From assembly GCA_964427615.1 (NCBI GenBank), contig CAYRUR010000001.1, forward strand, positions 219,241 through 283,240: a DNA stretch of 64,000 nucleotides, in the 5' to 3' direction. A model generated the notes under the pieces. It made no database searches, had not been told where the DNA came from, and was given only the letters and a program-made list of their open reading frames with translations. A program made the translations under genes and the position numbers. Below are positions 1 through 57,397 of the stretch, piece by piece. Numbering within the stretch: position 1 is the first letter of the stretch; every line of letters begins with the position of its first letter. The stretch comes from an uncultured Gammaproteobacteria bacterium. GTDB lineage: Bacteria; Patescibacteriota; Microgenomatia; Levybacterales; GWA1-39-11.

Positions 1-2174
1 GCGGACTTGGTAAGGAGATTGGCATACGTGGCTGGTATGATACTATCTTGTATTCCAGCAACAGCTTCTGAGAAAGCATCTCCATTTTGATTAACCGGGT
101 TGCTGGAAGAAGGAAGTGATTGATTATTTGGTAAAGTATTTTCCTCGATAAACTCATCTTGGTACTCTGAATTATCACTTGGTGGAGGTGTAGAGTCATC
201 GGATCCTGTTGAATTTTCAGTTTGTGGAGGGGTGGAATCATCTGAGTCTGCTGAATCTGATTGTGTATCCAAGTGCTCATCTGAAGATGCAGAGGTGTCT
301 TGCTCTGTTCTTGCTGTGGTTCCACCAGTTGCTTGATTTGCCCCAGAAGTAGATTTTGTATCCTTTTGTTTATGTTGGCCAGGTGTTACTACATCGCCGA
401 CCAAACTGCCAAATACATTGATAACCGTTACTACTAGTTTGCCGCTTCCAACGATATTATTGTTTACGAAATTAACAAGGTTGGCAATAATGCGAGCATC
501 TCCGGTTGTAATACTTGAATTTCCTCCTGTGTTAAAGCTGGCATCATTTCCGCCAGTGTTTGCAGATAGATTCAAATTATTTTGAATTTGTGCGTTATTA
601 GATTGAGAAGTAGAATTATTATTTTCTTGACTGCTACTGGCAGTATTAGTAGAGCCTGCGCCATTGGAGTTGTTAGAGGCTGTTATAGAACCGTCTGCTC
701 CAACACTTACTTCTGTACCAGGGGAAGCTGCATAATTGGCTCCTTCTGGTGCTCCTAAGATTTTACCCACCCACTTACCTGCCTCATTTACAATTACTAG
801 CCACCATGTTCCACCATTTACATTTGAGTTTGCAATATTTAGTACATTTGCGGATACTTCTGTATCTCCTGTATTAACAGTGGAGTTGCCATCGGTATTG
901 TAGCTAGTAGTATTGTTGCCGGTAGTTGCATCCAGAATAAGGTTGTTATCAATGTCAGCTGTATTAAATTGATCAGTTGTAGTGGTGGTGGTTTGATTGC
1001 TGTTGGCAGTATTAGTAGAGCCAGCTCCATTATTGGTGTTGGAGGCCGCTGTGTTATTACAGGTGCTGCAAGCGTTATTAATAGCAGACTCTGGAATAAT
1101 AATATCTCCCACTAGGTTACCAAAAATATTGACCACCCCAAACACTACATTTCCTGAAATATTATTATTTACAAAGGTGAGCGCATTGGCAGCAACATTT
1201 GCATCACCGGTAGTAATACTTGAGTCACCATTTGTGTTGTAACTGGCTTTATTATTTCCAGAATCAGCACTTAAGGTAAGGTCGCTTCCAATAATGGCAT
1301 CATTGGTTTGGAAAGTATTCGTATTAGTGGTATTGTTGGTTTCAGCTGTGTTATCAGAAAATGCACCATTTCCAGAATTTTGAGTGCCAACTGTTGTTCC
1401 ATTACAACCTGAAATGCAGTTTGCGTTGAAATCTAAGACAATATCTCCATTATGGTCGTCGGTGATATTAAATTCAGAAATTGCAACACCAGAGACATTG
1501 GTATTTACAGCAGTTATAGCAGTTCCTGAAGTATTTGCATCACCACTGGTAACTGTTGCTGAACTGCCAGTATTAAAGGAGGCAGAATTATCTCCAGTTA
1601 CTGTCGCTTGGTTTAGGTCACTCTGTACATTGGCATCATTATTTTGTTCTGTGTCGGTATTGTTAGTAGTATTAGTTGATCCATGATTTTCAGAAAAAGC
1701 TCCATTGTCTTTATTAGTTACGGTTTGTTCTGATCCAGCATTATTATTAGGTTTTGCAGCAGCATTTGTATTACCAGTAGTAATGGTGGTGGCGCTGTTG
1801 TTGGCATCACCACTTGTAACATTTGCATTTCCTTCTTGTGTATTTGTCTGAGCATCTGGTGTTGGGTTTTGTTGTGCTGTTGGTTGGGTGAGTGCAGAAG
1901 AAGTATCAGTATTTGGTGTGTTATCAGTATCAGTAGAAGATTGAGTAGTAGATGTTGGGTTGTTTTCTGAGGTTGGTGTAGGGGTTGTAGGAGCAGAAGA
2001 GTCAGGGGTAGGACTGCTGGGAGCAGTGGGGGCTACTGGAGGTGTTGGAATAGATAGTTCTTGAGCGCTGATAGGTACAATACTTACTTGAGCAAAAAGA
2101 AGGAGTATAGTGAGAGCAAGAGCTACTGTTTGTTTTATTTTTTTAAGTTGTAGTTTTGGTGTCAATTGTTTCAT
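1..2174 (-). CDS. Secreted Asn/Thr/Gly/Asp-rich tandem-repeat surface protein, N-terminal part only; the C-terminus lies beyond the left window edge
   Basis: ATG (complement of 2172-2174) begins a minus-strand frame that I read by eye for >720 codons to position 1 with no stop noticed, so it runs off the window. The N-terminus MKQLTPKLQLKKIKQTVALALTILLLFAQVSIVPISAQ is signal-peptide-like. Repeats of about 90 aa carry the motifs NGAFSDN, (F/Y)NT.G.S.ITTGDAN and VNNNI.G...V.NIFG.LVGD. The ORF track shows only short antisense ORFs here. Confidence 0.62.
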   Translation of the reverse strand, partial: MKQLTPKLQLKKIKQTVALALTILLLFAQVSIVPISAQELSIPTPPVAPTAPSSPTPDSSAPTTPTPTSENNPTSTTQSSTDTDNTPNTDTSSALTQPTAQQNPTPDAQTNTQEGNANVTSGDANNSATTITTGNTNAAAKPNNNAGSEQTVTNKDNGAFSENHGSTNTTNNTDTEQNNDANVQSDLNQATVTGDNSASFNTGSSATVTSGDANTSGTAITAVNTNVSGVAISEFNITDDHNGDIVLDFNANCISGCNGTTVGTQNSGNGAFSDNTAETNNTTNTNTFQTNDAIIGSDLTLSADSGNNKASYNTNGDSSITTGDANVAANALTFVNNNISGNVVFGVVNIFGNLVGDIIIPESAINNACSTCNNTAASNTNNGAGSTNTANSNQTTTTTTDQFNTADIDNNLILDATTGNNTTSYNTDGNSTVNTGDTEVSANVLNIANSNVNGGTWWLVIVNEAGKWVGKILGAPEGANYAASPGTEVSVGADGSITASNNSNGAGSTNTASSSQENNNSTSQSNNAQIQNNLNLSANTGGNDASFNTGGNSSITTGDARIIANLVNFVNNNIVGSGKLVVTVINVFGSLVGDVVTPGQHKQKDTKSTSGANQATGGTTARTEQDTSASSDEHLDTQSDSADSDDSTPPQTENSTGSDDSTPPPSDNSEYQDEFIEENTLPNNQSLPSSSNPVNQNGDAFSEAVAGIQDSIIPATYANLLTKS

Positions 2175-2282
2175 ATATGTTTTGTATTATTTAGAATAAG
2201 TTCTTTTTTATTTTTTTGTGGGTGTTGTAGGGTAGATTATCGAAGTGCCAACAATCATACCCTACTTTTTTCCCACTTTTGT

Positions 2283-3503
2283 CTATACAAACAGCTTGAG
2301 ATGATCCAAAAGATCTTCTATATCGAAAGAAAACCCAATATGGTTATCTTTCAAGAAATCAAATGGATTATCTTCTCCAATGATGTTTGCGTTTGCAGTA
2401 TTCTGAATGCGAATACGTGAGTCTGCGTCACCGGTTTCAATTTCAGTGTCGCCTCTTGTATTGAAGCCTGCAAAGTTATCCCCAGTTTCTAGGTCTCTTA
2501 CATCGATGTCATTATCCAAGTCAGCATCGTTGTCCTGATCTAAATCAGTGGTATCATCGAGTGTAAGGTCAATAACGTTGAGAGACTCTGCTCCGTTGTC
2601 ATCAATCTTTGCTAAAGCATCAAATGCACATCCGCAGTCAACGTCTGCATGGTTAAAGTTGACCAAGTTATCAACTATGACCTCTGCATTTGCATCACCA
2701 GTTTCAATTTCAACATCGCCTCTTGTATTGAAGCTAGCTGTGTTGTCGCCAGTTTCTGCATCTACATCAACGTCATTGTCGATATCTGCATCATTATCTT
2801 GGTCTATCTCAGTATCTTGATCGAGATCAGCAGTGATGAAATTATCACTGAAGGCTCCATTATCAAGAATTTTTGCGCTGAAAGATCCGGATGAACGGTT
2901 ATGACCGTTTCCTATAGATGCACTGTTGGCATTGGCTATAGTGCGTAAGTTGACTTTTGTATTAGCATCACCAGTCTGGATGCTTACATCTCCCCGTGTG
3001 TTGAAGTCAGCGGTATTATTTCCCGTGTCTGCATCTACGTCAATGTCGTTGTCTACATCTGCATCATTGTCCTGATCTATGTCGATAGTGTTGTCATTCT
3101 CTATATCTACAACATTGTCTGAAAATGCTCCATTATCCTCAATGAGGACACTGCTGCCTTCTGACTTACAACAGTCAACCTTTGCTTTATTACTGTTTAG
3201 TACATTTTGTACATTAACAGAGGTGTTAGCATCTCCTGTCTTGATCTCTACATCTCCTCCGGTGTTAAAGCTGGCGCTATTGTTTCCTGTATTCGCATCG
3301 ACATCAATATTGTTATCTACATCGGCATCGTTGTTTTGCCGTATGGTAGTATCACTTGATTGGTTTATTGTTGCGAAGTTATCAGAAAATGCGCCATTTC
3401 CAGAAATCTCAGTGGTTGTACTTGCGAGTGCTGGGGCGCCCATAGAAAGTATGACTGCCCCTGCTGTCATTGCTGAAAAAAGTTGTTTTTTAAGATTTGT
3501 CAT
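2283..3503 (-). CDS. Secreted Asp/Asn-rich protein with four repeats of about 88 aa, paralog of the upstream repeat protein
   Basis: ORF 2283..3542. The internal ATG at 3503 is preceded by GGAGGTG (spacer about 11 nt) and followed by MTNLKKQLFSAMTAGAVILSMGAPALAS (signal peptide). There are four repeats NGAFSDN...DQDNDADVDNDIDVDA.TGNN.A.FNTRGDVEI.TGDAN. No LPXTG is present. Confidence 0.75.
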   Translation of the reverse strand: MTNLKKQLFSAMTAGAVILSMGAPALASTTTEISGNGAFSDNFATINQSSDTTIRQNNDADVDNNIDVDANTGNNSASFNTGGDVEIKTGDANTSVNVQNVLNSNKAKVDCCKSEGSSVLIEDNGAFSDNVVDIENDNTIDIDQDNDADVDNDIDVDADTGNNTADFNTRGDVSIQTGDANTKVNLRTIANANSASIGNGHNRSSGSFSAKILDNGAFSDNFITADLDQDTEIDQDNDADIDNDVDVDAETGDNTASFNTRGDVEIETGDANAEVIVDNLVNFNHADVDCGCAFDALAKIDDNGAESLNVIDLTLDDTTDLDQDNDADLDNDIDVRDLETGDNFAGFNTRGDTEIETGDADSRIRIQNTANANIIGEDNPFDFLKDNHIGFSFDIEDLLDHLKLFV

Positions 3504-3620
3504 ATGTTTAGTTTCACCTCCCTTCTTTTTCCTTTGATACAAATCAAAGTGTAATTTTTGTGCTAAAAGTTTTGCTTAACACAAGCACTTCTTTTTTTAC
3601 CGCTTTTGTTTCGTTATGTA

Positions 3621-14009: not shown

Positions 14010-16136
14010 ATGGCACGAAAGAAATACAAAAAAAGAAAAGGAGGAGTAAAGTTAAAGAAAAATACTGTTTACACTCTTTTTTCTGTTGGATTATTATTTT
14101 TAGGGGTTTTTCTTCTGGCTTCTTACACACAAAATGGACCTTTGCTTGCTACTGCTCACAGCTACTTATCTTACTTTTTTGGTCCCCTTTCTTTTTTGGT
14201 GCCTATTAACTTTATTCTTATTGCGTTGATGTTGACTAGGTTAAAGTCTCGTTTTGCTCAGCCGACATTGTCTATTGGTTTTCTTTTTTTCTCAGCATGT
14301 TTTATTTCGCTTCTTGGTTCAGGAGTGGCAGGACAGATGATGAAGGATAATCTGGTCGCATTTTTAGGAGGCGCTTTAGCTGTTATTTTTCTGATTTTAG
14401 GAACATTTCTTGGGATTATTGTTTTTTTAAATATTTCGTTACAGCAACTCTTTCAAGGAATTATGGTTGCTTCTCAGGACTTAGCACATGTGTTTAAGAC
14501 GCGCATTGTGCCTCTTTTTAAAGTCCAAAAAGTAAATCTTCCAGATCCTAAGCAAATTACCATTAAAGGCTTGCCACAAGAGATGCCTGCCTCCAGTCCT
14601 AAAGTCAATGAAAGACGTCCTGAAGTGCCTAAACAAGATCCAAAGAAGGCAGAAATATCTGATGAATTAGTATTAAATCAGCCGTTGGAGATGGGAGTCT
14701 GGGAGTACCCTCCTTTAGCCTTACTGTCTGATCAGGCAGATAAAAAAGCAGAGCGAGGAGATGTAAAAGCTACTGCTAGCACAATAGAAAAAACGCTGCA
14801 AAGCTTTGGAATAAAAGCTCGGGTAGTAGAAATTAATTTAGGACCTTCGGTTACTCAGTATGCTATAGAAATTGCGTTAGGAACTAAGCTCTCTAAAATT
14901 ACTGGTCTTGCCAATGATTTGGCTTTGGCAACAGAAGCACCAACCGGTCAGGTCAGAATTGAGGCGCCAATTCCAGGAAGAAGTTTGGTAGGTATTGAAA
15001 TTCCTAATAGGTCTCTTGAAGTAGTATCTCTCAAAACACTGCTTGCTTCCTCTCAGATGCAGAAGAACAAATCAAAACTAGCTATTCCACTGGGTCTTGA
15101 TGTAGCGGGTAATCCGGTGATTGCTGATATTACCAAAATGCCTCACGTACTTATTGCCGGTACCACCGGGTCTGGTAAATCTGTGTCCATGAATACATTT
15201 ATTTCCTCTATCTTATTTAGAGCTTCTCCATCAGAGGTTAAGATGATTATGATTGATCCTAAGCGCGTGGAGCTTACCGGATATAATGATATTCCTCATC
15301 TGCTTACTCCTGTGGTGGTAGAAGCAGATAAAAGCGTTTCAGCACTTAAGTGGGCATTAAAAGAGATGGACAAGCGGTATACAAAATTTGCAGAGGCAGG
15401 AGTACGTAATCTCGACTCCTATAACGAACTTTCAGGATTTCAAGCAATTCCTTACATTGTTATTTTTATTGATGAATTTGCAGATTTGATGGCGCTTGCT
15501 CCAGCCGAGGTGGAGGATTCCATTACCAGACTTGCCCAAATGGCTCGTGCTACTGGTATTCATTTAGTACTGGCAACCCAAAGACCATCAGTAGATGTTA
15601 TTACTGGTCTTATTAAAGCCAATGTGCCGTGTCGTATGGCTTTTAGCGTTTCTTCTATGGTAGATAGTAAGGTAGTGTTGGATGCACCGGGAGCAGAAAA
15701 ACTGTTGGGCAAAGGTGATATGTTGTATATTCCTCCGGATCAAGCAAAACCTACCCGTATTCAAGGCTGTTTTGTCTCAGAACAAGACACAAAACGGTTA
15801 GTAAACTTTATTAAAGCACGTGGTATTCCGGTACAGTACACAACAGAAGTAGTAGAGCAAGAAGTACATATTAAAGGAAGAGGGGCTTCTGGGAGTGCAA
15901 CAGCCAGTGGAACAGACTCAGATAAGGATGAGTTATTTGCCGAAGCAGTACGTATTGTGTGTCAGTATGATAGAGCGTCTTCGTCTCTTTTGCAAAGAAA
16001 GCTTTCTATTGGGTTTAACCGTGCTGCTCGTATTATGGAACAACTGGAACAGTTTGGTGTAGTAAGTCCTGGAGATGGTTCCAAGCCTCGTGATGTTATT
16101 ATTACCAACCCCGACGAGTTTTTAAGCCAAGTGTAG
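14010..16136 (+). CDS. ftsK: DNA translocase FtsK/SpoIIIE
   Basis: N-terminal TM segments. Walker A is GTTGSGKS, followed by DPKRVEL and Walker B FIDEFADL. A C-terminal winged-helix gamma domain is present. Confidence 0.9.
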   Translation: MARKKYKKRKGGVKLKKNTVYTLFSVGLLFLGVFLLASYTQNGPLLATAHSYLSYFFGPLSFLVPINFILIALMLTRLKSRFAQPTLSIGFLFFSACFISLLGSGVAGQMMKDNLVAFLGGALAVIFLILGTFLGIIVFLNISLQQLFQGIMVASQDLAHVFKTRIVPLFKVQKVNLPDPKQITIKGLPQEMPASSPKVNERRPEVPKQDPKKAEISDELVLNQPLEMGVWEYPPLALLSDQADKKAERGDVKATASTIEKTLQSFGIKARVVEINLGPSVTQYAIEIALGTKLSKITGLANDLALATEAPTGQVRIEAPIPGRSLVGIEIPNRSLEVVSLKTLLASSQMQKNKSKLAIPLGLDVAGNPVIADITKMPHVLIAGTTGSGKSVSMNTFISSILFRASPSEVKMIMIDPKRVELTGYNDIPHLLTPVVVEADKSVSALKWALKEMDKRYTKFAEAGVRNLDSYNELSGFQAIPYIVIFIDEFADLMALAPAEVEDSITRLAQMARATGIHLVLATQRPSVDVITGLIKANVPCRMAFSVSSMVDSKVVLDAPGAEKLLGKGDMLYIPPDQAKPTRIQGCFVSEQDTKRLVNFIKARGIPVQYTTEVVEQEVHIKGRGASGSATASGTDSDKDELFAEAVRIVCQYDRASSSLLQRKLSIGFNRAARIMEQLEQFGVVSPGDGSKPRDVIITNPDEFLSQV

Positions 16137-16143
16137 TATTTTT

Positions 16144-16770
16144 ATGAGAAAAATCAGTGAAATCCTCAAAAATGAGAGAAAGGCACAAAATCTTGCTCTT
16201 GAAGATGTTGAGAAAACTACCAAAATAAAAAAAGAGTTTTTGAGGGCTATTGAGGAAGGAAAATTTCATCAGCTTCCTTCAGAATCCTATGCTTTAGGCT
16301 TTGTTAAAAATTATGCTAGTTTTTTAGGAGTTAATTCACCTGAAGTGGTGCCACTCTTCAGAAGAGAGTATAAAGCAGAAAAAGTTGAAGTCATTCCTCA
16401 TTACACTAAAAATCAACCTAAAAAAAGACAGAAATTTTATTTTTCCTATAAAACAATTTTGGCAGGAGTTGGTGCTTTTATTTTACTCGGATATATTCTT
16501 TTTCAGTTCCACTCTTTTTTTGTGGGGCCAAAATTGAGCATAGATGCGCCGCAAGAAGGGGCAGTAGTAAAGGACAATATCGTAGAAGTAAAGGGAAAAA
16601 CGGATCCCTATGCTACGGTTCTGGTAGAAGGAGAGGAAGTATATGTGCAAATTGATGGCACCTTTCAAAAGTCTTTGTATTTATTCTCAGGAGAAAAGAA
16701 CATAAAGATAGTTGCAAAAGATAGGAACGGCAAACAAACCACTGCACAAGTTTCAGTACAAGTTCAGTAG
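16144..16770 (+). CDS. rodZ: RodZ-like HTH (XRE) cytoskeleton protein with a TM segment and a DUF4115-like C-terminus
   Basis: N-terminal HTH LRAIEEGKFHQLPSESYALGFVKNYASFLGV; TM helix ILAGVGAFILLGYILF. Confidence 0.6.
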   Translation: MRKISEILKNERKAQNLALEDVEKTTKIKKEFLRAIEEGKFHQLPSESYALGFVKNYASFLGVNSPEVVPLFRREYKAEKVEVIPHYTKNQPKKRQKFYFSYKTILAGVGAFILLGYILFQFHSFFVGPKLSIDAPQEGAVVKDNIVEVKGKTDPYATVLVEGEEVYVQIDGTFQKSLYLFSGEKNIKIVAKDRNGKQTTAQVSVQVQ

Positions 16771-26085: not shown

Positions 26086-27939
26086 ATGCTACACGCACCA
26101 GATATTATCGAAAAGTATATTACGTTTTTTAAAGCAAGAGGACATACACAAATCCCTAATGCTTCTTTAGTGCCTGAGAATGACCCCACCACGCTTTTTA
26201 CTAGTAGTGGTATGCAACCACTCGTGCCGTACCTTTTGGGAGAGACACATCCCGCGGGAAAACGTTTGGTAAATGTACAAAATTCTTTTAGAGCGCAAGA
26301 TATCGATGAGATAGGAGACAACAGACACACTACTTTTTTCCGTATGTTAGGCAACTGGTCTTTGGGTGACTACTTTAAAAAAGAGCAGATTCCCTGGTTT
26401 TGGGAATTTTTGACAAAAGAATTAGGACTTCCGAAAGAAAAATTATATGTAACCGTTTTTGAAGGAAATGAAGATATCCCAAAAGATGAGGAAACAGCAG
26501 GCATCTGGAAAGACATTTTTACCAAAGAAGGACTTAATCCAGATGAACACATCTTTTTTTATGGTGTAGAGAAAAACTGGTGGTCTCGCTCAGGTGTGCC
26601 TGCTAACATGCCTGAAGGTGAGCCAGGTGGTCCTGATACAGAAGTGTTTTTTGATTTTGGGACTCCACATGACAAAAAGTTTGGTGAACAATGTCATGTC
26701 AATTGTGACTGTGGCAGGTTTATGGAAATCGGTAACAGTGTTTTTATGCAGTACAAGAAAACAAAAGATGGTTTTGTGCCTCTTCCTCAACAAAACGTTG
26801 ATTTTGGAGGAGGGCTTGAAAGGTTATTGGCGGCTTCTCAGAACTCTCCAGATGTTTTTATGACAACGCTTTTAAATCCTATTATTGAAACCATAGCCAA
26901 AGAAACAGGTAAAGAATACAGCCAAAAAGCTAAGCAAATGAGAATTGTAACAGACCATTTCTTAGCAGCGATTTTTATTATTGCCAATAAGGTGCGTCCT
27001 TCTAACAAAGAGCAAGGATATATTTTGCGAAGACTTATCAGACGTGGTCTGGATAATTTTTATGAGCTTGAAGGACAACGGATAGAGCCTATTCTGGAAG
27101 CAATTGTTGAGCAATACAAAAAAACAGATACTTATTTAGAAGAAAAATATGCAGAAATAAAACTAACGATTTTGGAAGAGGAGCAAACGTATAAAAAAGC
27201 AATCAGTGGAGCACGCAAATACATAGAAAGAAAATATAGAAAAAGAAAAGAAATTGAAGATATTAAGGGTAAAAATGAAACAGATGCTCTAAAAGGAATA
27301 GAAGAAATTACTGCAGATGATGCTTTTGTATTGTACACCACCCACGGACTTTCTCCTTCTCAGATTAAAAGTTTGGGGTATACATTTGATGATCAGGCAT
27401 TTGCAGAAAAGATGAAAGCCCATCAGCAAGTTTCTAAAAAAGGCGCAACGCAAAAATTTAAAGGAGGACTGGCTGATACGCAAGAAAGGACTATCATGGG
27501 GCACACTGCTACGCATTTGCTTCACAAAGCCTTACGGGACATGTTTGGGGAAAAAGTGCACCAGACAGGCTCCAATATTACTACAGAGCGGGTGCGTTTT
27601 GATTTTGCGTTTGATAGAAAATTGACCCCTGAGGAGTTAAAAGAAATAGAGCATACGGTAAATCAAAAAATAAAAGAAAATTTGCCTGTTTATTATTTGT
27701 TGCTTCCATTGGCAGAAGCACGCAAGCTCAATGCGATTGGTCTTTTTAACGAAAAATATGAGGATACCGTCAAAATATATTGTATTGGAGGATCACCGGA
27801 GCATCCTGAAGAAGCATACTCCAAAGAATTTTGTGGCGGACCCCATGTTGAATTTACAGGAAAAATAAATTCCTTTACAATAGTAAAAGAAGAGGGACTC
27901 GGAAAAGGTGTCCGTCGTCTATATGCAACTGTCGCATAA
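26086..27939 (+). CDS. alaS: Alanyl-tRNA synthetase, short 617-aa form without a C-Ala domain
   Basis: Catalytic domain with FTSSGMQP and HTTFFRMLGNWSLGDYFK motifs; editing-domain motifs HTATHLLH and CGGPHV. Confidence 0.85.
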   Translation: MLHAPDIIEKYITFFKARGHTQIPNASLVPENDPTTLFTSSGMQPLVPYLLGETHPAGKRLVNVQNSFRAQDIDEIGDNRHTTFFRMLGNWSLGDYFKKEQIPWFWEFLTKELGLPKEKLYVTVFEGNEDIPKDEETAGIWKDIFTKEGLNPDEHIFFYGVEKNWWSRSGVPANMPEGEPGGPDTEVFFDFGTPHDKKFGEQCHVNCDCGRFMEIGNSVFMQYKKTKDGFVPLPQQNVDFGGGLERLLAASQNSPDVFMTTLLNPIIETIAKETGKEYSQKAKQMRIVTDHFLAAIFIIANKVRPSNKEQGYILRRLIRRGLDNFYELEGQRIEPILEAIVEQYKKTDTYLEEKYAEIKLTILEEEQTYKKAISGARKYIERKYRKRKEIEDIKGKNETDALKGIEEITADDAFVLYTTHGLSPSQIKSLGYTFDDQAFAEKMKAHQQVSKKGATQKFKGGLADTQERTIMGHTATHLLHKALRDMFGEKVHQTGSNITTERVRFDFAFDRKLTPEELKEIEHTVNQKIKENLPVYYLLLPLAEARKLNAIGLFNEKYEDTVKIYCIGGSPEHPEEAYSKEFCGGPHVEFTGKINSFTIVKEEGLGKGVRRLYATVA

Positions 27940-30165
27940 ATGAATATTCTGCCCTTTCTGAAAAAAACAAAAGAAGAAAGAGAATACTTTCTTGCACTTA
28001 TTCTGAAGCAAAACAGAATCGGTGCTATTCTCTTTGAAAAGACTGCAAAAGGACTTGATGTGCTTACCTCCTCTGATCAGGAGCAGAAAAATCTGCAAAG
28101 CTTAACCGATGAGGAGCTTATTGAAGCATCTGATGCAGTTATTTCCACTGTTGAGAAAAGCCTTCCTCCTCACATAGATCTTAAAAAAACCATTTTTGCT
28201 ATTCCGTATACCTGGCAAGATGAAGGAAAAATAAAACCTGAAAACCTGACAAGATTGAAGAAAGTGTGTCAGGAATTAGATCTTACACCAGTTGGTTTTA
28301 TTGTCTCTATTGAAGCTATGATTCATGCCCTGCAGCAGAAGGAGGGAGCCTCTTTATCTGCTCTGTTTGTGGAAGTAGAGAAAAAAGAGGTTCATGTTTT
28401 CTTAGTAAAGAACGGAAAAATACTGCAAGTTAAAAATGGAGAATGGCAAAGCTCTGTGGTGGATACCGTAGAAAAACTACTAAAAGATATAGAAGAAGTT
28501 GAGGTGCTTCCTCCCCGTATTTTTTTGCAAGATGATAAAGAAAGTCATGCTATCCAGCAATCATTTTTGCATCACAGTTGGCCAGCAGACCTCCCCTTTT
28601 TACATGTTCCACAGGTGATTGTGTTTGAAAAAGGGTTTGAAAACGAGGCACTGATTCATGGTGTAGCCTCTCAAATGGGAGTTGAGATGTCTTTTGCCAA
28701 ACAAGACACTCAGCCTGCTGAGGAAGAAAGTGTAGAAAATGCAATTGAGCCAGTCGAAGAGCTTGAACATATTGATAAACAAGCCAATTTTTATAAAGAA
28801 GTAGATGTGCGATTTGAGAAAGCTCCGGTTGAAGAGGAAAAGGAAGATAAGCCTGAAGCTTCTTTTGCGCAGGAAAGCAGCAGTGTGCCTACCCATGCTT
28901 TACCCTTAGCAGAAGAAACCTCAGAGAAAAAAGAATCTTTCCTAAAAAAGATACGGACATTAGCTATCGTGGGAAGTCTTAAAGAAAAAATGAGTAGTAT
29001 CTCTCTTCCTTCCTTTTTAGGTGGGTCGAATATGCGTCTTAAAATTGGAGGAGGTATAGCAGTAGGCATACTTCTATTAGTAGCTTTTGTGTATTCCTAC
29101 TATGCCTTTATAACTCGAGCGGAGATTGTGCTTTTTTTGGATAAAAGAATGGTAACAGAAGAAGTGCCGGTAACCTTTTCTACAGAAGATGAGACCTCTG
29201 TAGAAGATGCAGTTATTCGTCTTGCTACTACCTCTCAAGAACTGGAAGGCTCAGCCAAACAAAAAACAACCGGTAAAAAAGAAACGGGTGAAAAAGCAAA
29301 GGGAGAAGTGACTATTTATAACAAGACTGATGAACCGCAAACAATTGAAAAAGGAACTATCCTTAGTTCTTCAAATGATTTAGAATTTGAGACATTAGAT
29401 GAGGTAAAAGTTGCCTCGACCAGTTCTTTTTCTACTTCATTTTCGAGTAGTAAAGTAAGTGTCGAAGCAAGAAAATTAGGCAAAGAATACAATCTCCCTT
29501 CTGCTACTAACTTTACGGTTGAGTCTTTTTCTTCCTCAGAGGTGTTTGCGAAAAATGACTCTGCTTTTTCAGGAGGTTCTAAAAAAGAATTAAAAGTAGT
29601 GTCTGAAAAAGATTTAGCAGATCTTGAAGAAGCTATTGAAAAGCAATTGAGTGAGAAGGTATCGTCTTCTTTATCAAGTGGTGAAAGTGGCGATACAGTT
29701 ATTCCTGCTATTCTTGCGACAGAATTTGTAGAGAAAAAATTCAGTAAAAAAGAAGGAGAAGAAGCAGAGGAAGTATCTCTATCAGCAAAACTGGCCTTTG
29801 AAATTGGAAGATATAACGAAGAAGATTTAGAAAGCTTTGCCCAAGAACTAACCAATGAATCTATTCCAGAGGGGTATACCTATGTAAAAGATGAATCGCG
29901 TATTCAAATAGAAGATGTAGAAGTAACAGAAGGTGCGATGAATGGGGTTTTGGCTGTGGAGGCAGTGTATGTACCTGCACTTGAAGTAGACACTTTAGCA
30001 AAAGACCAGCAAAGAAAGAGTAAAAAAGAGGTAGAAAAGCAATTACAGGAGCTAAAAGGTGTGTCTGATGTTACCGTAATTTTGAAAAACCAGTTGCCAT
30101 TGTTGCCTGCATTGCTTCCTTTTAATGCCAAGCATATTATCATTCAAACGAAAGCTCATGAGTAA
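27940..30165 (+). CDS. Bitopic membrane protein: N-terminal cytoplasmic domain of about 350 aa, one TM helix, and a Ser/Glu/Lys-rich exodomain
   Basis: Its start abuts the alaS stop. The TM helix is GGGIAVGILLLVAFVYSYYAFI. The N-terminal domain has a weak actin-like (FtsA/PilM-like) appearance, which is speculative. Confidence 0.55.
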   Translation: MNILPFLKKTKEEREYFLALILKQNRIGAILFEKTAKGLDVLTSSDQEQKNLQSLTDEELIEASDAVISTVEKSLPPHIDLKKTIFAIPYTWQDEGKIKPENLTRLKKVCQELDLTPVGFIVSIEAMIHALQQKEGASLSALFVEVEKKEVHVFLVKNGKILQVKNGEWQSSVVDTVEKLLKDIEEVEVLPPRIFLQDDKESHAIQQSFLHHSWPADLPFLHVPQVIVFEKGFENEALIHGVASQMGVEMSFAKQDTQPAEEESVENAIEPVEELEHIDKQANFYKEVDVRFEKAPVEEEKEDKPEASFAQESSSVPTHALPLAEETSEKKESFLKKIRTLAIVGSLKEKMSSISLPSFLGGSNMRLKIGGGIAVGILLLVAFVYSYYAFITRAEIVLFLDKRMVTEEVPVTFSTEDETSVEDAVIRLATTSQELEGSAKQKTTGKKETGEKAKGEVTIYNKTDEPQTIEKGTILSSSNDLEFETLDEVKVASTSSFSTSFSSSKVSVEARKLGKEYNLPSATNFTVESFSSSEVFAKNDSAFSGGSKKELKVVSEKDLADLEEAIEKQLSEKVSSSLSSGESGDTVIPAILATEFVEKKFSKKEGEEAEEVSLSAKLAFEIGRYNEEDLESFAQELTNESIPEGYTYVKDESRIQIEDVEVTEGAMNGVLAVEAVYVPALEVDTLAKDQQRKSKKEVEKQLQELKGVSDVTVILKNQLPLLPALLPFNAKHIIIQTKAHE

Positions 30166-30883
30166 GCACTACTACAAAAAAGTACCAAATCCAAAACAGA
30201 AAAAAATGGTCAGGATGGTTGGTTTATCCTTCTTGGGCGTAGGTGCTCTTTCATTTATTTATTTTCTCTTTCCTATTATTTCCTACAGTCTTTTTCTTTC
30301 TCCTGCTTTTGCTTCAGGAGATATAGAAGCTCCTATCCCTCGCTATCTAGTGGCCACAGAAGATAATAGATTTACTACTCTTATCAAGCAAGGTATTGCT
30401 TCTTTAACTTCAGATTATATTGATGCTCGTAACTGGTATCCCCAAATTGCAGTGGAAAAAGAGAAAAAAACAGAAGTAAAGCAATACTCACTTGCTATTC
30501 CTAAGCTACAGATTGAAAATGCTATAGTCTCTACAGTTGATTATGATCTTTCAAAAAATCTTGTTCATTATTACGGTCCAGCTAGCCCAGTAGAAAAAGG
30601 GACGTCTGTAATTTTTGGCCATTCTACACTTCCTCAGTGGTTTGACCCTACCAACTACAAAGCTATTTTTGCTACCTTACATACGATAGAAATAGGAGAT
30701 GATTTAGTGGTTACCGTAGATGGGAAAGCATATACCTTCAAAGTTTTCTCAGTTACCGTAACAACACCTGAAGATGTGAATATTTTTTCTCAATCCTATG
30801 ATAATAGTTATATAACCTTAGTTACCTGTACACCACCTGGTACTACTTGGAAGCGACTTATCGTGAGAGCAAGTCTACAATAA
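30158..30883 (+). CDS. Sortase (transpeptidase) with an N-terminal TM anchor
   Basis: Catalytic His in VIFGHSTLP, TLVTCTPP with the catalytic Cys, and a conserved Arg in KRLIVRA. The ATG overlaps the upstream stop by 8 nt. Confidence 0.8.
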   Translation: MSKHYYKKVPNPKQKKMVRMVGLSFLGVGALSFIYFLFPIISYSLFLSPAFASGDIEAPIPRYLVATEDNRFTTLIKQGIASLTSDYIDARNWYPQIAVEKEKKTEVKQYSLAIPKLQIENAIVSTVDYDLSKNLVHYYGPASPVEKGTSVIFGHSTLPQWFDPTNYKAIFATLHTIEIGDDLVVTVDGKAYTFKVFSVTVTTPEDVNIFSQSYDNSYITLVTCTPPGTTWKRLIVRASLQ

Positions 30884-30884
30884 T

Positions 30885-31118
30885 ATGGAACAGCAAGAAA
30901 ACGCACCATCAAATGCTCGTGATTACTTTTTAGAAGCAGAGGATGAGAAACCATCTGTTTACCGTCAAAAGACAGATACTCTTTTGGGACTTGGTAACTA
31001 TGCTTTTAAGCAATCATTGCCTTTTTTTTACCGAGCATTGAACATAAGTATCTTTTATGTGATAAGATTTATAAAGGCCTCTATAGAACTTATTATCCAA
31101 CAGATACGATTTAAGTAA
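30885..31118 (+). CDS. Hypothetical small protein
   Basis: 77-aa ORF packed tightly between the sortase gene and the phosphorylase gene. Confidence 0.3.
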   Translation: MEQQENAPSNARDYFLEAEDEKPSVYRQKTDTLLGLGNYAFKQSLPFFYRALNISIFYVIRFIKASIELIIQQIRFK

Positions 31119-31120
31119 GT

Positions 31121-32407
31121 ATGGAAGAAAAGCAAAAAGTTGCACTTGAAGCAATACAAAAAAAATTATTGGGAAAAAAGCTGACTTACAAAGAAATCTA
31201 TGCCATCATGGACCAAATTGCTGAAGATAGGCTAGGTGATATCCTTACAACTTACTTTGTGGCATCTGGTTACTCAAATGGATTTACCGATGAAGAGATC
31301 TACTATCTAACAAAGGCGATGATCGAGACTGGAGAAACCTTGGAGTTTGAGGGCACTGTAGCTGATAAACACTCAATTGGAGGCAGTCCTGGAACCAGAA
31401 CTACGATGATTGTGGTTCCCATCATTGCTGCAGCTGGTTTTAAAATTCCAAAGAGTTCCTCGCGTGCTATTACCACCCCAGCAGGTACTGCAGACGTAAT
31501 GGAAGTATTGGCAAACGTTACGTTTTCAAAAGAGAAAATACACAAGATTGTTGAAAAAACAAATGGTTGTATTGTCTGGGGAGGAAGTTTTAAAATCGCT
31601 CCTGCTGATGATGAGATTATTCGTATTGAAGAGCCATTGATGTTTGAGAGTTTTGATAAGATTTTAGTCTCTATCATGGCCAAAAAAATTGCATTTGGCT
31701 CTACCCATGTGGTGATTGATCTTCCCTATGGCAAAACTATGAAAGTACATAGAAGAGAAGATGCAGAGGTCTTGCGCAAGAAATTCGAGTTTTTAGCTGA
31801 CAAATTCAATATTGCGATGAAGGTTTTGGTGCACAAAATAGATGAACCAGCTGGAAGAGGTGTAGGACCGCTTTTAGAAGCGCGCGAGGTACTTTGGGTC
31901 TTAGAACAACATGAGAAAAGATCACAGGACCTAGAAGAGAAGTCCATCCAATTGGCCAAAGAGTTACTTGATCTGTGTTTGCAGGATGCAAAGAAAGAAG
32001 TACAACAAGAAATTGCCGAAAGGTATGTGGATACAGAGGACTGGGCTCGACACCTGTTGTCATCCGGAGCAGCACATACTAAAATGATGGAAATTATTGG
32101 AGCTCAGGGAGGAGATCCTAAGGTAAAGTCCTCAGACCTGAAGCTTGATAAATTTGCGTATGATGTAGAACATGAAGGGCCTTCCGGAGTAATTACGCAT
32201 GTGCATAACAAAAATGTCTCTTTAACCGCCAAAATTTTAGGAGCACCTGAGGATAAAAAAGCTGGTATCTTTTTACATAAAAAAGTGGGTGATAGGGTTA
32301 AAAGAGGTGAAGTATTATGTACTTTGTATGCACAGACAAAGTACAAATTAAAAGAAACAGTGGACTCTTTGGAGATTCTTCCCCTTTTTTCCATTGAAAA
32401 AGGATAA
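31121..32407 (+). CDS. Thymidine/AMP phosphorylase family (glycosyltransferase family 3) enzyme
   Basis: ADKHSIGGSPGTRTTMIVVPIIAAAG...TTPAGTADVMEVL matches the pyrimidine-nucleoside phosphorylase signature. Confidence 0.8.
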   Translation: MEEKQKVALEAIQKKLLGKKLTYKEIYAIMDQIAEDRLGDILTTYFVASGYSNGFTDEEIYYLTKAMIETGETLEFEGTVADKHSIGGSPGTRTTMIVVPIIAAAGFKIPKSSSRAITTPAGTADVMEVLANVTFSKEKIHKIVEKTNGCIVWGGSFKIAPADDEIIRIEEPLMFESFDKILVSIMAKKIAFGSTHVVIDLPYGKTMKVHRREDAEVLRKKFEFLADKFNIAMKVLVHKIDEPAGRGVGPLLEAREVLWVLEQHEKRSQDLEEKSIQLAKELLDLCLQDAKKEVQQEIAERYVDTEDWARHLLSSGAAHTKMMEIIGAQGGDPKVKSSDLKLDKFAYDVEHEGPSGVITHVHNKNVSLTAKILGAPEDKKAGIFLHKKVGDRVKRGEVLCTLYAQTKYKLKETVDSLEILPLFSIEKG

Positions 32408-32428: not shown

Positions 32429-33385
32429 ATGAAAAAAATAATTATTGTATCTACAGTTATTCTTCTGAGCATTGTTGCAGGATTACTGTGGTGGAACAGA
32501 GGAATGGCTGCAGTGAATACGCAAGACAAGCACGAAGAGGTATTTGTTATTCGTAAAGGTGCAGGACTACGTGAGATAGCCAATGATTTAAAAGAAAAAG
32601 GACTGATTGTGGATCCTACTGTTTTTTTCCTATACGTTAAGAAAGAAGGAAAAGATACCGAAATTCAGTATGGGAGTTTTCGCCTTTCTCCTTCTATGAG
32701 TGCCAAAGAAATTGCCGAAAATCTCACACATGGAACCTTTGATATGTGGGTGACTTTTAAAGAAGGTATTCGGGCTGAGGAAGTGGCAGATATTCTGCAG
32801 CAAGAGTTTCCTCAATTTGAACCCAGTTGGAGGACAGAGCTTATTAAAGAGGAAGGATTTCTTTTTCCTGATACGTATTTAGTGCCAAAAGACGCTACAG
32901 TGGAGACAATCATACAGGTTATGAAAGACAATTTCTATAAAAGGACTGTGGAGTTAGGCTTAGAGAAAGATTCAGCAGAGGAAAAAAATGCAGTAATTAT
33001 TGCCTCACTGATAGAAAGAGAAGCCAGATATGATAATGATATGGGACTGGTCTCATCAGTAATTCACAACCGTTTAGCAGATGGCATGTCTCTTGATATT
33101 GACGCTACTCTGCAGTATGCAATAGGTAAAGGGCACAAAGGGGGTACATGGTGGAAAATACCAGAAGGGGTTGATACGAAATTGGAGTCTCCTTACAATA
33201 CCTATAGAAATCCAGGTCTTCCGCCCACCCCTATTTCCAATCCAGGCTTAAGAGCATTAAAAGCCGCTGTTAATCCAGCAGAAAGTGAATATTATTTTTA
33301 TGTATCAGATGAAAACGGACATCTTCATTTTGCCAAAACCTTAGCGGAACACAATCAAAATATTGAAAAGTACTTGAATAACTAA
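32429..33385 (+). CDS. mltG: Endolytic murein transglycosylase MltG (YceG family)
   Basis: N-terminal TM; LIEREARYDNDMGLVSSVIHNRL and YNTYRNPGLPPTPISNPG motifs. Confidence 0.85.
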   Translation: MKKIIIVSTVILLSIVAGLLWWNRGMAAVNTQDKHEEVFVIRKGAGLREIANDLKEKGLIVDPTVFFLYVKKEGKDTEIQYGSFRLSPSMSAKEIAENLTHGTFDMWVTFKEGIRAEEVADILQQEFPQFEPSWRTELIKEEGFLFPDTYLVPKDATVETIIQVMKDNFYKRTVELGLEKDSAEEKNAVIIASLIEREARYDNDMGLVSSVIHNRLADGMSLDIDATLQYAIGKGHKGGTWWKIPEGVDTKLESPYNTYRNPGLPPTPISNPGLRALKAAVNPAESEYYFYVSDENGHLHFAKTLAEHNQNIEKYLNN

Positions 33386-33405: not shown

Positions 33406-33434
33406 TTGACAAACTTTTCGTATGTAAGTAGAAT
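33406..33434 (+). promoter_or_regulatory. Consensus promoter TTGACA-N17-TAGAAT for rpoBC
   Basis: TTGACA 33406-33411, 17-nt spacer, TAGAAT 33429-33434. Confidence 0.6.
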
Positions 33435-33446
33435 ATGAGTTACGAA

Positions 33447-33480
33447 AATAAGGGTGTATGGTGCCCTTATTATTTTGTTG
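33447..33480 (+). promoter_or_regulatory. rpoB leader hairpin (AATAAGGG/CCCTTATT, 9-nt loop) plus ATTTTGTTG U-rich tract; putative attenuator
   Basis: Perfect 8-bp stem 33447-33454 with 33464-33471, followed by a U-rich run about 30 nt before the rpoB ATG. Confidence 0.45.
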
Positions 33481-54781: not shown

Positions 54782-57397
54782 TTACTTTAAATAAAACGTC
54801 TCTCCATCGGAGATCTTGGATTTGGGTTTGTTCTTGTCCTCAGTTTGTTTTGACTGTTTTTCTTGATTTTTATCATGTGGTTTTTTATCGGTATATTGTT
54901 TTTGCTGAGCTTGATGATGTTGTACATTTTTATGGTCTTTTGATTGTTTTTTTTCAGAAGAAGGATTGTGTTGTGGATGCTGTTTTGCAGTCTGTTGAGT
55001 TGGTTGGCCTTGTTTTGCCTGTGCTTTTTCTTCTTGCTTTTGGGCAGGATGATTTGTTGGTTGTCCGGCTGAATGGTGGGGTTTTTCCTGTTGTTTGACT
55101 GGAGTTTTTACCTCTTGGTTTTTGACAGAAGCAGTAACTGATAAGTCAGATTGTTTTTGCTGTGGTAGATTACTTGGTGCTCTTTGCTCTTGTTTAGGTG
55201 CTGGCCCGTCATATTTTTTATATTCAGGTTTTTCTACTACTAAAGGAGTTATCGTTTTATAATATCTTTCCTGAGATCCTTTTAAGACTTTTGGCCTATT
55301 TTGGTTACGACTATTAGGTAACGGCAAAGTTTGAGCCAAAAATGGAGAGCTTGTCATACCATCAATAGAGAGTCTGGTAATAATTTGATGCCTTCCAAGT
55401 GCGAGAATATCCTCTGCCTGGTATCTTTCTCCAAATTCTTTGGCTAAAATATCTAAATCCTCAGCTCCCACTAAAAAGGTCATGAGTGTGCCGACATTTC
55501 CAAAAATAGCACTTTTCAGTTCCGGTGGAAGTTGAGCCATGTACTGATTAGCAAGTGTTAAATTTAGACGATACTTGCGTGCCTCAGATAAGATTTTAAT
55601 AAAGGAGGTAGTGGCAAAGTTCTGGAACTCGTCAACATAGAGAAAGAAGTCCTTACGTTCTGCTTCAGGTATATACACACGATTCATGGCCGCCAATTGT
55701 AGTTTGGTAATAGTCATAGCACCTAGCAATGCAGAGTTATCTTCTCCCATTTTTCCTTGTGAAAGGTTGAAAAGCAGGATTTTTCTGTTGTTCATAATGT
55801 CTTCCAGATCAATAGTTGATTTAGGGTGTCCTACGATATTGCGGATAACATTGGAGGATAAAAATTGTCCTACTTTATTTAAAATTGGAGAGGTTGATTC
55901 TGTCATCATACGGTCATTCATTTTATTGAACTCATCCAGCCAGAAGGCTTTGATGACAGGATCAGTAACATATGTTTCTACAACTCTAGTGCGATATTTG
56001 TCATCTGTTAGAATGCGTGGTACGAGCATAAGTGTAGCATTGGGAATTTCAAGTAAAGTTAGAATAGTATTGCGTAAAATATACTCCAGTCGCGGTCCCC
56101 AAGAGTTTCCGTATAATTTATAGAAAATCGCTACGATACCGGAGGCAATCAGATCTTTTTGTGAAAGATCTTCATCCAATGGATTTAAATGAAATGATTT
56201 GCCTGTTCCTTCTGTGGGACTCAGATATACTACATCATTAATGCGATATGAAGGAATATAATCTAGGATTGTTTCACATAAATCTCCGTGAGGATCAATA
56301 ACTGCCAGTCCTTCACCATTTCTAATATCGTTGATTACCATATTAGCAATAAGCGTTGATTTTCCGACACCTGTTTTTCCGATGATATAGGTGTGTTTTC
56401 TCCTATCAATACGCTTCATACCAAAAGTAGAGAGGGTATTGCGAAAATAGGTTTTTGCAAAAAAATTAATTTCTTTTTTTCCTTCTGCATCAAGTCCTAA
56501 AGCAATGGGGAGGTCTTCTGGAGCATCAGAAAAAATTGTTTTTGCCCAGGAGATGTTGTGGATAGTTGAAAGTTGTTTGCCAGGAAAATGGAAAAGGGTA
56601 GCAATCTCTGAAAGATTTAGTATTTGGCCTGTAGGGATAAAAGATCCGCTACGGGTGATAAAAGCAGTATGTAGCTTGTCCTTTTGCCATAGATAAGGTT
56701 TTTTAAGCGACAGGCTGTTTCCGCTTGCGTTATTAAAGCCTGAAAAAGCAGTGGCGATTTGCAAAAAGAGGTCTTTATTAGGGCTTTTGACAAAGAGGCG
56801 GATACCTACCTTAAAACCATGTTGTCCTATTTTTTCACCAATCACCGCTGCATGAGGATTGGTAGAAGTAGTGCCGTCTGCGTTGGTGGTCTTTTTTTCC
56901 ATTTGTGCTCTTCCACTTGACTGCCAACTATTGCCAATTGGGACCAATAAATACTGAATGACCACCTGATCTTCTTGGGTAAGCTTTGATAACAAGCCTA
57001 ATAGTGAGGAAAGAGGGTCTACTTCCTTAAAATCAGTATATGTTTTTAAGGGGAGCAGATGTGATTGGTTGAGTGTAAGTTGTCCTTCGCGGATAGGAGC
57101 AGTAGGTTGGAGAACATACTTTAGGTAGTCTTCTTGCAAATGTCTTATTTGGGAATGTGGGTACTGTGAGTAAATCTGGCTTTCAATAAAGGGGGCAAGT
57201 GCTTTTGGGAGGACAACATAAAAATAAATAGTCTGGTCAAAAACAGCAATTTCAAAACTGATAGGAATGCCCTTTTTGATGAAAAAATAATGGGTTTTGC
57301 GCAGATTGGTAAGACTGGCTAACAACTGTACCATTACTTCCGGAGTTTCTTCACCAGTGCGTGGTGTTTTTATCTCTAAAATAGCCTTTTCTTCCAT
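54782..57397 (-). CDS. VirD4/TraG/TraD-like type IV coupling protein ATPase, soluble, with a long Gln/Lys-rich disordered tail
   Basis: Walker A is GKTGVGKST, followed about 20 aa later by VIDPHGD and then NPLD. Walker B is FLYVDEFQNF, and RLNLTLANQYMAQL is the T4CP Q-motif. No N-terminal TM helices. SD AGAGGT upstream. Confidence 0.7.
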   Translation of the reverse strand: MEEKAILEIKTPRTGEETPEVMVQLLASLTNLRKTHYFFIKKGIPISFEIAVFDQTIYFYVVLPKALAPFIESQIYSQYPHSQIRHLQEDYLKYVLQPTAPIREGQLTLNQSHLLPLKTYTDFKEVDPLSSLLGLLSKLTQEDQVVIQYLLVPIGNSWQSSGRAQMEKKTTNADGTTSTNPHAAVIGEKIGQHGFKVGIRLFVKSPNKDLFLQIATAFSGFNNASGNSLSLKKPYLWQKDKLHTAFITRSGSFIPTGQILNLSEIATLFHFPGKQLSTIHNISWAKTIFSDAPEDLPIALGLDAEGKKEINFFAKTYFRNTLSTFGMKRIDRRKHTYIIGKTGVGKSTLIANMVINDIRNGEGLAVIDPHGDLCETILDYIPSYRINDVVYLSPTEGTGKSFHLNPLDEDLSQKDLIASGIVAIFYKLYGNSWGPRLEYILRNTILTLLEIPNATLMLVPRILTDDKYRTRVVETYVTDPVIKAFWLDEFNKMNDRMMTESTSPILNKVGQFLSSNVIRNIVGHPKSTIDLEDIMNNRKILLFNLSQGKMGEDNSALLGAMTITKLQLAAMNRVYIPEAERKDFFLYVDEFQNFATTSFIKILSEARKYRLNLTLANQYMAQLPPELKSAIFGNVGTLMTFLVGAEDLDILAKEFGERYQAEDILALGRHQIITRLSIDGMTSSPFLAQTLPLPNSRNQNRPKVLKGSQERYYKTITPLVVEKPEYKKYDGPAPKQEQRAPSNLPQQKQSDLSVTASVKNQEVKTPVKQQEKPHHSAGQPTNHPAQKQEEKAQAKQGQPTQQTAKQHPQHNPSSEKKQSKDHKNVQHHQAQQKQYTDKKPHDKNQEKQSKQTEDKNKPKSKISDGETFYLK

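Follow-up and report, generated by a model that had tools for sequence, protein, structure and literature searches.

A Microgenomates-restricted membrane protein family with a predicted actin-like domain and a Baseplate-J-type ectodomain, encoded next to a sortase

A 64,000-nt stretch of Levybacterales DNA (contig CAYRUR010000001.1; this whole stretch is called the window below) carries, at positions 26086-30883 of the + strand, three adjoining genes: alaS for a short alanyl-tRNA synthetase (AlaRS), an open reading frame (ORF) whose 741-amino-acid (aa) product we call X741, and a sortase gene. X741 belongs to a family of bitopic membrane proteins that is uncharacterised and confined to Microgenomates. 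It combines a predicted cytoplasmic actin-like domain, a single transmembrane (TM) helix and an ectodomain with a Baseplate-J-type beta-barrel. Across related genomes the X741-type gene (X in the gene orders below) and the sortase gene are the most tightly conserved unit of the gene block in which they lie, and alaS is displaceable. The two genes and the parts of X741 are as follows.

27940-30165, + strand: X741, 741-aa bitopic membrane protein (ORF; 232 full-length homologues)
27940-28680, + strand: X741 aa 1-247, predicted minimal ASKHA (actin-like) fold, predicted cytoplasmic, no nucleotide-binding motifs
28681-29037, + strand: X741 aa 248-366, acidic linker of variable length (alignment; composition)
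28783-28812, + strand: conserved short linear motif inside the linker (F284 invariant; G283 and D289 at least 90% conserved)
29038-29115, + strand: X741 aa 367-392, single TM helix (Kyte-Doolittle; one long helix in the AlphaFold2 (AF2) model)
29116-30162, + strand: X741 aa 393-741, predicted ectodomain with beta-rich segments, a Baseplate-J/GlxA-type beta-barrel and C-terminal alpha/beta modules
29236-29589, + strand: Baseplate-J/GlxA-type beta-barrel, X741 aa 433-550
30158-30883, + strand: membrane-anchored sortase, 241 aa from the ATG at 30158 (Pfam Sortase; TIGR01076; catalytic motifs)

Inspection of ORFs and codons gave the gene positions and both junctions as the original prediction had them. 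The TAA of alaS (27937-27939) abuts the X741 ATG at 27940 with zero intergenic bases. The stop codon of X741 (TAA, 30163-30165) lies beyond an ATG at 30158 in the sortase frame (MSKHYYKK...), which produces an overlap of 8 nt. Two other sortase starts were considered, a longer ORF from 30125 and the start at 30215 (222 aa) chosen by the gene caller on identical public contigs. The start at 30158 is best supported, because homologous sortases share its opening, M-x-K/H-Y-Y-x-K before the TM helix (all of the 24 inspected, a later Met being mostly absent), and because the same -8 overlap with the X741-type gene recurs in 21 of 72 related loci. As read from these sequences, the overlap of the two genes is real. 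Use of the start at 30215 removes the conserved basic N-terminal tail of the sortase and conceals the overlap.

Full-length homologues of X741 numbered 232 in a search of 5.8 billion proteins, at 37-46% identity, which means that the locus consists of real genes and not of chance ORFs. They are unnamed or called 'hypothetical protein', and those with a named source come from Candidatus Levybacteria/Levyibacteriota. The profile of the N-terminal domain, run against 1.84 billion cluster representatives, retrieved 1396 at E<=1e-3, 1234 at <=1e-10 and 538 at <=1e-30. Since the count hardly rises from 1e-10 to 1e-3, the family, at about 1,400 clusters defined at 50% identity, is sizeable yet stands apart, with no transition into FtsA, PilM or MreB at the level of sequence. 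Its range covers Levy-, Gottesman- and other Microgenomates only, with divergent members at 24-31% identity. Gottesmanbacteria members are sometimes labelled 'baseplate J/gp47 family protein' by NCBI. A literature search over 8 million full texts yielded no description of the family.

The family alignment falls into five regions, among them a conserved N-terminal block (aa 1-247), the variable acidic linker, a hydrophobic helix (aa 367-392) and a well-conserved C-terminal half. Hydropathy bears out the one TM helix that had been proposed: a single hydrophobic helix is present at aa ~367-392, with a Kyte-Doolittle maximum of 2.28 at aa 373-391. The large cytoplasmic domain of about 350 aa that had been proposed with it does not hold as one domain, and consists of a folded domain of 247 aa followed by ~120 aa of variable acidic linker. 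X741 is most likely oriented with its N terminus inside and its C terminus outside, because it has no signal peptide, ASKHA domains are cytoplasmic and the GlxA barrel is extracellular.

An AF2 model of the N-terminal domain (aa 1-247, 44 homologues) reached a pLDDT of 91.4 and a pTM of 0.85. Its elements follow a duplicated beta-beta-beta-alpha-beta-alpha-beta-alpha order, that is, two tandem RNase-H-like subdomains forming the ASKHA core. No subdomain is inserted between the core elements of the model, and both 1C/SHS2 and 2B are absent. Foldseek returned ASKHA proteins only, with a probability of 1.00: PPX/GppA at the top, and PilM, BT_3980, EutJ, CoaX, YeaZ and FtsA. In the structural comparison FtsA came ahead of Arp9, PilM, ParM and Hsp70 by a marginal lead only, and PilM was among the best matches by both comparison methods. 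The model and its matches predict an actin-like (ASKHA) fold at the superfamily level. To this extent the original prediction, which suggested a divergent FtsA/PilM-like fold, was right; the FtsA/PilM subfamily is not established, as Arp9, ParM and Hsp70 score nearly as well.

Profile searches did not give the domain a named family. Neither Pfam nor NCBIfam offered one at E<=0.1, the scan of 1.84 billion representatives returned the domain's own family only, and a profile search of PDB with the X741 family recovered the baseplate region alone and nothing for the N-terminal domain. FtsA, SHS2_FTSA, PilM_2 and T2SSL/GspL gave no Pfam match to X741 at E<=0.1. The motifs of the ATP site also appear to be lost: among 31 divergent members (24-45% identity), no conserved Asp or Gly was found at PHOSPHATE-1 (DxG), PHOSPHATE-2 (DxGGG[ST]) or ADENOSINE (GG). 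E145 is conserved in the Levy subgroup only. We infer that the domain is a nucleotide-free pseudo-ATPase, which would serve protein-protein contacts.

The linker (aa 248-366) is acidic (E 18.5%, net charge -11), and varies in both length and sequence. Within it lies a motif with the consensus [DE]-[FLI]-G-F-x-K-x-x-D-[VI]-L, whose F284 is invariant in all subgroups; the conservation of G283 and D289 extends across Levy- and Gottesman-type members. This FGF-type motif may be a docking peptide, as it is short and conserved within a variable, probably disordered tether. A second candidate peptide, the N-terminal M-x-L-P-F-L-K-K, taken as a mimic of the PilM-binding PilN peptide, was ruled out as it is not conserved beyond the Levy subgroup.

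The predicted ectodomain (aa 393-741) is rich in Ser, Glu and Lys, as had been noticed (E 14.6%, S 11.5%, K 10.0%; net charge -25), and it contains a Baseplate-J domain that had been missed. Pfam Baseplate_J (PF04865) matches aa 433-550 with 34.0 bits against a gathering score of 21.1, and the GlxA beta-barrel gives a weaker match. In PDB, the X741 family profile matches the diffocin baseplate protein TRI-2 (E 5.7e-5). The AF2 model of aa 366-741 (pLDDT 91.9) shows a barrel whose fold matches Baseplate_J. The most conserved stretch of the whole protein, TGKKxxG[DE]xAKGEVTIYNKT, is found at aa 444-463. A contractile tail or injection-system context is absent, the neighbours being housekeeping genes in all 78 loci considered below.

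The sortase has a TM helix and, at its N terminus, a basic tail; its catalytic residues His (GHS), Cys (TLVTC) and Arg (VRA) are intact. It scores 83.4 bits against Pfam Sortase and is above the cutoff of the generic TIGR01076 model. Among the NCBIfam class models the best is class C, with 67.9 bits against a cutoff of 160, and the score is below cutoff for every class. In PDB the sortase matches class C/pilus sortases best (E 5e-11), and the catalytic motifs line up. Substrates were sought in the window and the 76 loci considered below with the pattern of a C-terminal [LIV]PxT/S/A-G-like motif followed by a hydrophobic stretch and a basic tail, and the matches were spurious antisense ORFs only. 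According to Méheust et al. (PMC6744442), this family of sortases occurs in nearly all Microgenomates and patchy elsewhere in the candidate phyla radiation (CPR).

The other genes of the block, on either side of the X-sortase pair, are these.

26086-27939, + strand: alaS, short alanyl-tRNA synthetase, 617 aa (Pfam tRNA-synt_2c and tRNA_SAD; NCBIfam NF002436)
30885-31118, + strand: small ORF of 77 aa between the sortase and phosphorylase genes, of uncertain membership in the module (ORF; called as a gene on Logan contigs)
31121-32407, + strand: thymidine/AMP-phosphorylase-family gene, abbreviated TP (Pfam Glycos_trans_3N, Glycos_transf_3 and PYNP_C; conserved position)
32429-33385, + strand: mltG/yceG, endolytic peptidoglycan transglycosylase family, last gene of the block (Pfam YceG, 266.6 bits)

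Conserved synteny, on which the original prediction had been made to depend, was found across relatives. With one genome per species, the scan gave 76 loci, and the order alaS-X-sortase-TP-mltG was present in all 76, with rpoB downstream or inverted upstream. Many of these records are titled 'uncultured Gammaproteobacteria', which we regard as a placeholder, since those with a name are Levyibacteriota or Patescibacteria. More distant relatives were reached from the most divergent locus, L066. Two of these (L078 and L079) have the order alaS-X-sortase-TP-mltG. Locus L077 reads alaS-(S51 peptidase)-(short-chain dehydrogenase/reductase)-X-sortase-ruvX-TP-small ORF-mltG-rpoB, and locus L082 reads alaS-X-sortase-ruvX-(IF-2B/RuBisCO fusion)-TP-small ORF-mltG. 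The junctions, for which statistics were taken over 78 loci, differ as follows.

alaS-X: median gap about 30 nt, insertion in 2 loci
X-sortase: median gap 1 nt, insertion in 1 of 78 loci
sortase-TP: median gap 258 nt, insertion in many loci (a small ORF or ruvX)
TP-mltG: median gap 34 nt, insertion in 10 of 65 loci

The stop of X usually overlaps or abuts the sortase start, and the two genes remain paired at 24-31% identity, in Gottesmanbacteria and in other Microgenomates. As for the remainder of the block, ruvX lies inside it in L077 and L082, and in Firmicutes, for instance B. subtilis, alaS, ruvX and mltG lie together as well; a paper on the alaS-ruvX-mltG linkage was not found in the literature. 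In that case the block would be an old alaS-(ruvX)-mltG housekeeping neighbourhood with X and the sortase inserted. TP is part of the conserved block, yet functionally unrelated.

The reading that we favour, and to which we give a little less than an even chance, is that X741 is a non-enzymatic transmembrane scaffold working with the co-translated sortase. Inside the cell, the pseudo-actin domain, the FGF motif or both would dock or self-associate, the partner being X741 itself or a cytoskeletal or divisome protein. On the outside, the barrel and the alpha/beta modules would retain or place the sortase, or else its substrates, at a defined site of the envelope. The presence of alaS upstream would follow from the insertion of the X-sortase pair into the old alaS-(ruvX)-mltG neighbourhood, not from a shared function. 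This putative role is supported by the loss of the ATP-site motifs in the 31 divergent members together with the single TM helix and the intact sortase motifs, by the X-sortase junction being the tightest of the block (median 1 nt, one insertion in 78 loci, 21 loci with the 8-nt overlap), and by the conservation of the FGF motif amid an otherwise variable linker.

Several points weigh against a scaffold that serves the sortase. The link between the two proteins is putative, and, as the block from alaS to mltG is highly syntenic throughout this lineage, a gene order that was simply inherited might account for their adjacency. Nor are overlaps rare in so compact a genome, where about 7 of 35 junctions on the same strand are at <=8 nt. 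An LPXTG-type substrate of the sortase was not found in the window or in the 76 loci, and there is no known precedent for the binding of a sortase by such an ectodomain. The linker motif of the window's own X741 departs from FGF (A-N-F-Y-K-E-V-D-V-R). Finally, the positions of the ATP motifs were assigned from predicted secondary structure and not from superposition. A bolder version, which we regard as a long shot, makes of X741 and the sortase an unrecognised, Microgenomates-specific surface-assembly system. There, a class-C-like sortase would build or anchor a structure on or beside a membrane platform resembling a baseplate and positioned from the cell's interior by a nucleotide-free actin fold, and in the extreme case the lysine of Y-N-K would be the covalent acceptor.

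Two alternatives assign X741 to another machine. X741 could be a component of the divisome or elongasome, an FtsA-like anchor with a wall-facing domain that acts with MltG and peptidoglycan synthesis, the sortase being a mere neighbour. We consider this unlikely. The lead of FtsA over Arp9, PilM, ParM and Hsp70 is marginal, and the TP-mltG junction is broken in 10 of 65 loci, whereas X-sortase is broken in 1 of 78. FtsA itself differs in size (~400 aa, against 247 aa for the N-terminal domain, at ~11% identity), in having an amphipathic C-terminal helix where X741 has a true TM helix, and in possessing subdomains 1C and 2B as well as motifs for ATP binding, all missing in X741, which also lacks an FtsA Pfam match. 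Alternatively, X741 could be an assembly-platform subunit of a pilus or secretion machine, like a fused PilM-PilN or GspL. Such proteins act as non-catalytic assembly platforms, a likeness to the role proposed here, and GspL in particular has the same three-part layout of a non-ATPase actin-like domain, a TM helix and, outside the cell or in the periplasm, an alpha/beta domain; in addition, PilM is among the top structural matches by both methods, and the sortase is nearest to class C (pilus) sortases. The resemblance is one of layout only, and this alternative is improbable. X741 has neither PilM_2 nor T2SSL Pfam matches nor a 1C/SHS2-type insert, its N-terminal peptide resembling that of PilN is not kept throughout the family, and its ectodomain is a Baseplate-J barrel, not a ferredoxin-like dimerisation domain alone. 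Its partner gene is a sortase, and no pilB/C/N/O, pilin or secretion-ATPase genes were found nearby, in the window or in any locus. Moreover, CPR genomes carry separate, canonical PilM/N/O in co-localised type IV pilus clusters (PMC6744442), which disfavours X741 as the PilM of such a pilus.

Two further alternatives start from the ectodomain. X741 could be an acceptor for the sortase, with LPXTG-type proteins joined covalently by the class-C-like enzyme to a conserved lysine of the ectodomain (for example K462 in V-T-I-Y-N-K) and X741 forming the membrane-embedded base of a surface fibre or of an anchored protein. The most conserved stretch of X741 does hold invariant or near-invariant lysines, the best matches of the sortase are pilin-polymerising class C enzymes, and the coupling of the two genes is very tight. 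There is also a faint likeness between V-x-I-Y-N-K and VxVYPK, which we take to be a pilin motif and use as a lead only. The idea is nevertheless highly improbable: it depends on motif resemblance alone, the G..A.G.V part of the stretch is generic to Baseplate_J, the sortase scores under the class C cutoff and is without the C-terminal anchor typical of that class, and no substrate was found in the window or the 76 loci. That X741 is what remains of a prophage or of a contractile injection system, as the Baseplate_J domain might suggest, or an active ASKHA enzyme (a kinase or polyphosphatase), as might be read from PPX/GppA heading the Foldseek list, is hardly credible. The gene occupies a fixed slot in a housekeeping block of 78 species-level genomes from which tail, sheath and other baseplate genes are absent, and the protein has none of the catalytic or phosphate-binding motifs that ASKHA enzymes carry. 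Compared with Baseplate J/gp47/gp6-type wedge proteins and with the barrel of Streptomyces GlxA, X741 has its barrel joined with a TM helix and with an actin fold in the cytoplasm, and it lacks the tail or baseplate context of the former and the copper-oxidase domain of the latter.

As to other membrane proteins encoded beside sortases, SafA is a small sortase-associated membrane factor found beside srtA in Actinobacteria, where it acts on the housekeeping sortase. It shares with X741 the concept of a membrane protein gene adjoining that of a sortase, has neither an actin fold nor a baseplate domain, and no homology is implied. The Pam pili, described recently in CPR, belong to another system, one that is chaperone-usher-like. 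What appears to be new here is that a putative membrane platform of the actin-fold type has a Baseplate-J ectodomain, for which there is no precedent, and a sortase as its candidate partner. A life attached to host cells is assumed for CPR/Patescibacteria, whose envelope and machinery for attachment are for the most part uncharacterised. Sortases are unusually common in Microgenomates, and the X741 family offers a concrete, phylum-wide candidate partner for them. X741 would exemplify both a minimal actin fold that is free of nucleotide and the use of a baseplate-J barrel outside any tail, and some 1,400 clusters labelled 'hypothetical' or 'baseplate J' share its two-sided membrane architecture.

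The alaS product is, judging by its profile matches, an ordinary and already known short form of AlaRS. Pfam matched tRNA-synt_2c (aa 7-458) and tRNA_SAD (aa 562-613) only, and no Pfam match was obtained for the C-Ala/DHHA1 region. Against NF002436, the equivalog model of short AlaRS (595 positions; PRK01584), it scored 607.9 bits for a cutoff of 529, with aa 6-615 aligned to profile positions 5-591. The absence of a C-Ala domain, already noted in the original prediction, is therefore upheld, and the protein is a full-length member of the short AlaRS, with the editing-domain motifs present and no notable difference. A link between this housekeeping synthetase and envelope assembly, also proposed at that time, was not supported. 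Spacing between alaS and the X741-type gene ranges from -17 to 593 nt across loci; in L066 about 594 nt separate the two, and in L077 (Gottesmanbacteria) two unrelated genes part them. The TAA-ATG abutment is weak evidence of a functional tie, because tight junctions are common in this compact genome. Probably, alaS merely adjoins the module and has no function in it.

Transcription signals were also searched. Promoter-like sites were not above shuffled expectation, and neither Rfam nor tRNA elements were matched in the operon region. The sole strong terminator-like hairpin of the region (33447-33471, 11-bp stem) comes after mltG, and a promoter-like site before rpoB (33406-33434, + strand; TTGACA-17-TAGAAT) has 11 of 12 consensus matches. 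The hairpin after mltG and the promoter-like site before rpoB agree with a single transcription unit that begins at alaS (or nth) and runs as far as mltG. The promoter-like site precedes the hairpin, an order inverted with respect to expectation, and the hairpin is possibly a leader or attenuator of rpoB, not the terminator of mltG.

The 77-aa ORF starts 1 nt past the sortase stop and ends 2 nt before the ATG of TP, filling the 237-nt gap. Weak syntenic tblastn matches to it were found in loci L004 (E 9e-7), L040, L063 and L019. In Gottesman-type loci ruvX occupies its slot, and a small ORF of 64-69 aa lies between TP and mltG.

Some other genes deserve mention. In the window, a RodZ-like gene comes 7 nt after ftsK (14010-16770 for the pair, + strand; RodZ-like product with HTH_25 and a Glucodextran_B-type beta domain, 208 aa), and the same pair is directly upstream of alaS in L078 and L082. 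The gene between ruvX and the phosphorylase gene in L082 (9372-11471) encodes 699 aa with IF-2B-family (ribose-1,5-bisphosphate isomerase-like) and RuBisCO large-subunit domains; genes of the nucleotide-salvage pathway thus form a cluster in this Microgenomates genome, and appear to be fused. On the - strand of the window, an 871-aa protein (54782-57397) has weak TrwB/TraG-type coupling-protein domains (type IV secretion/conjugation-like ATPase) and housekeeping neighbours. Also on the - strand, at 3-3542, two large ORFs, one of 724 aa that reaches the edge of the window and one of 419 aa, match nothing in Pfam and are possibly lineage-specific surface proteins. Lastly, dozens of Levyibacteriota contigs bear the title 'uncultured Gammaproteobacteria bacterium', one 'Lysobacterales' and one 'Saccharimonadales', and such titles are unreliable taxonomically.

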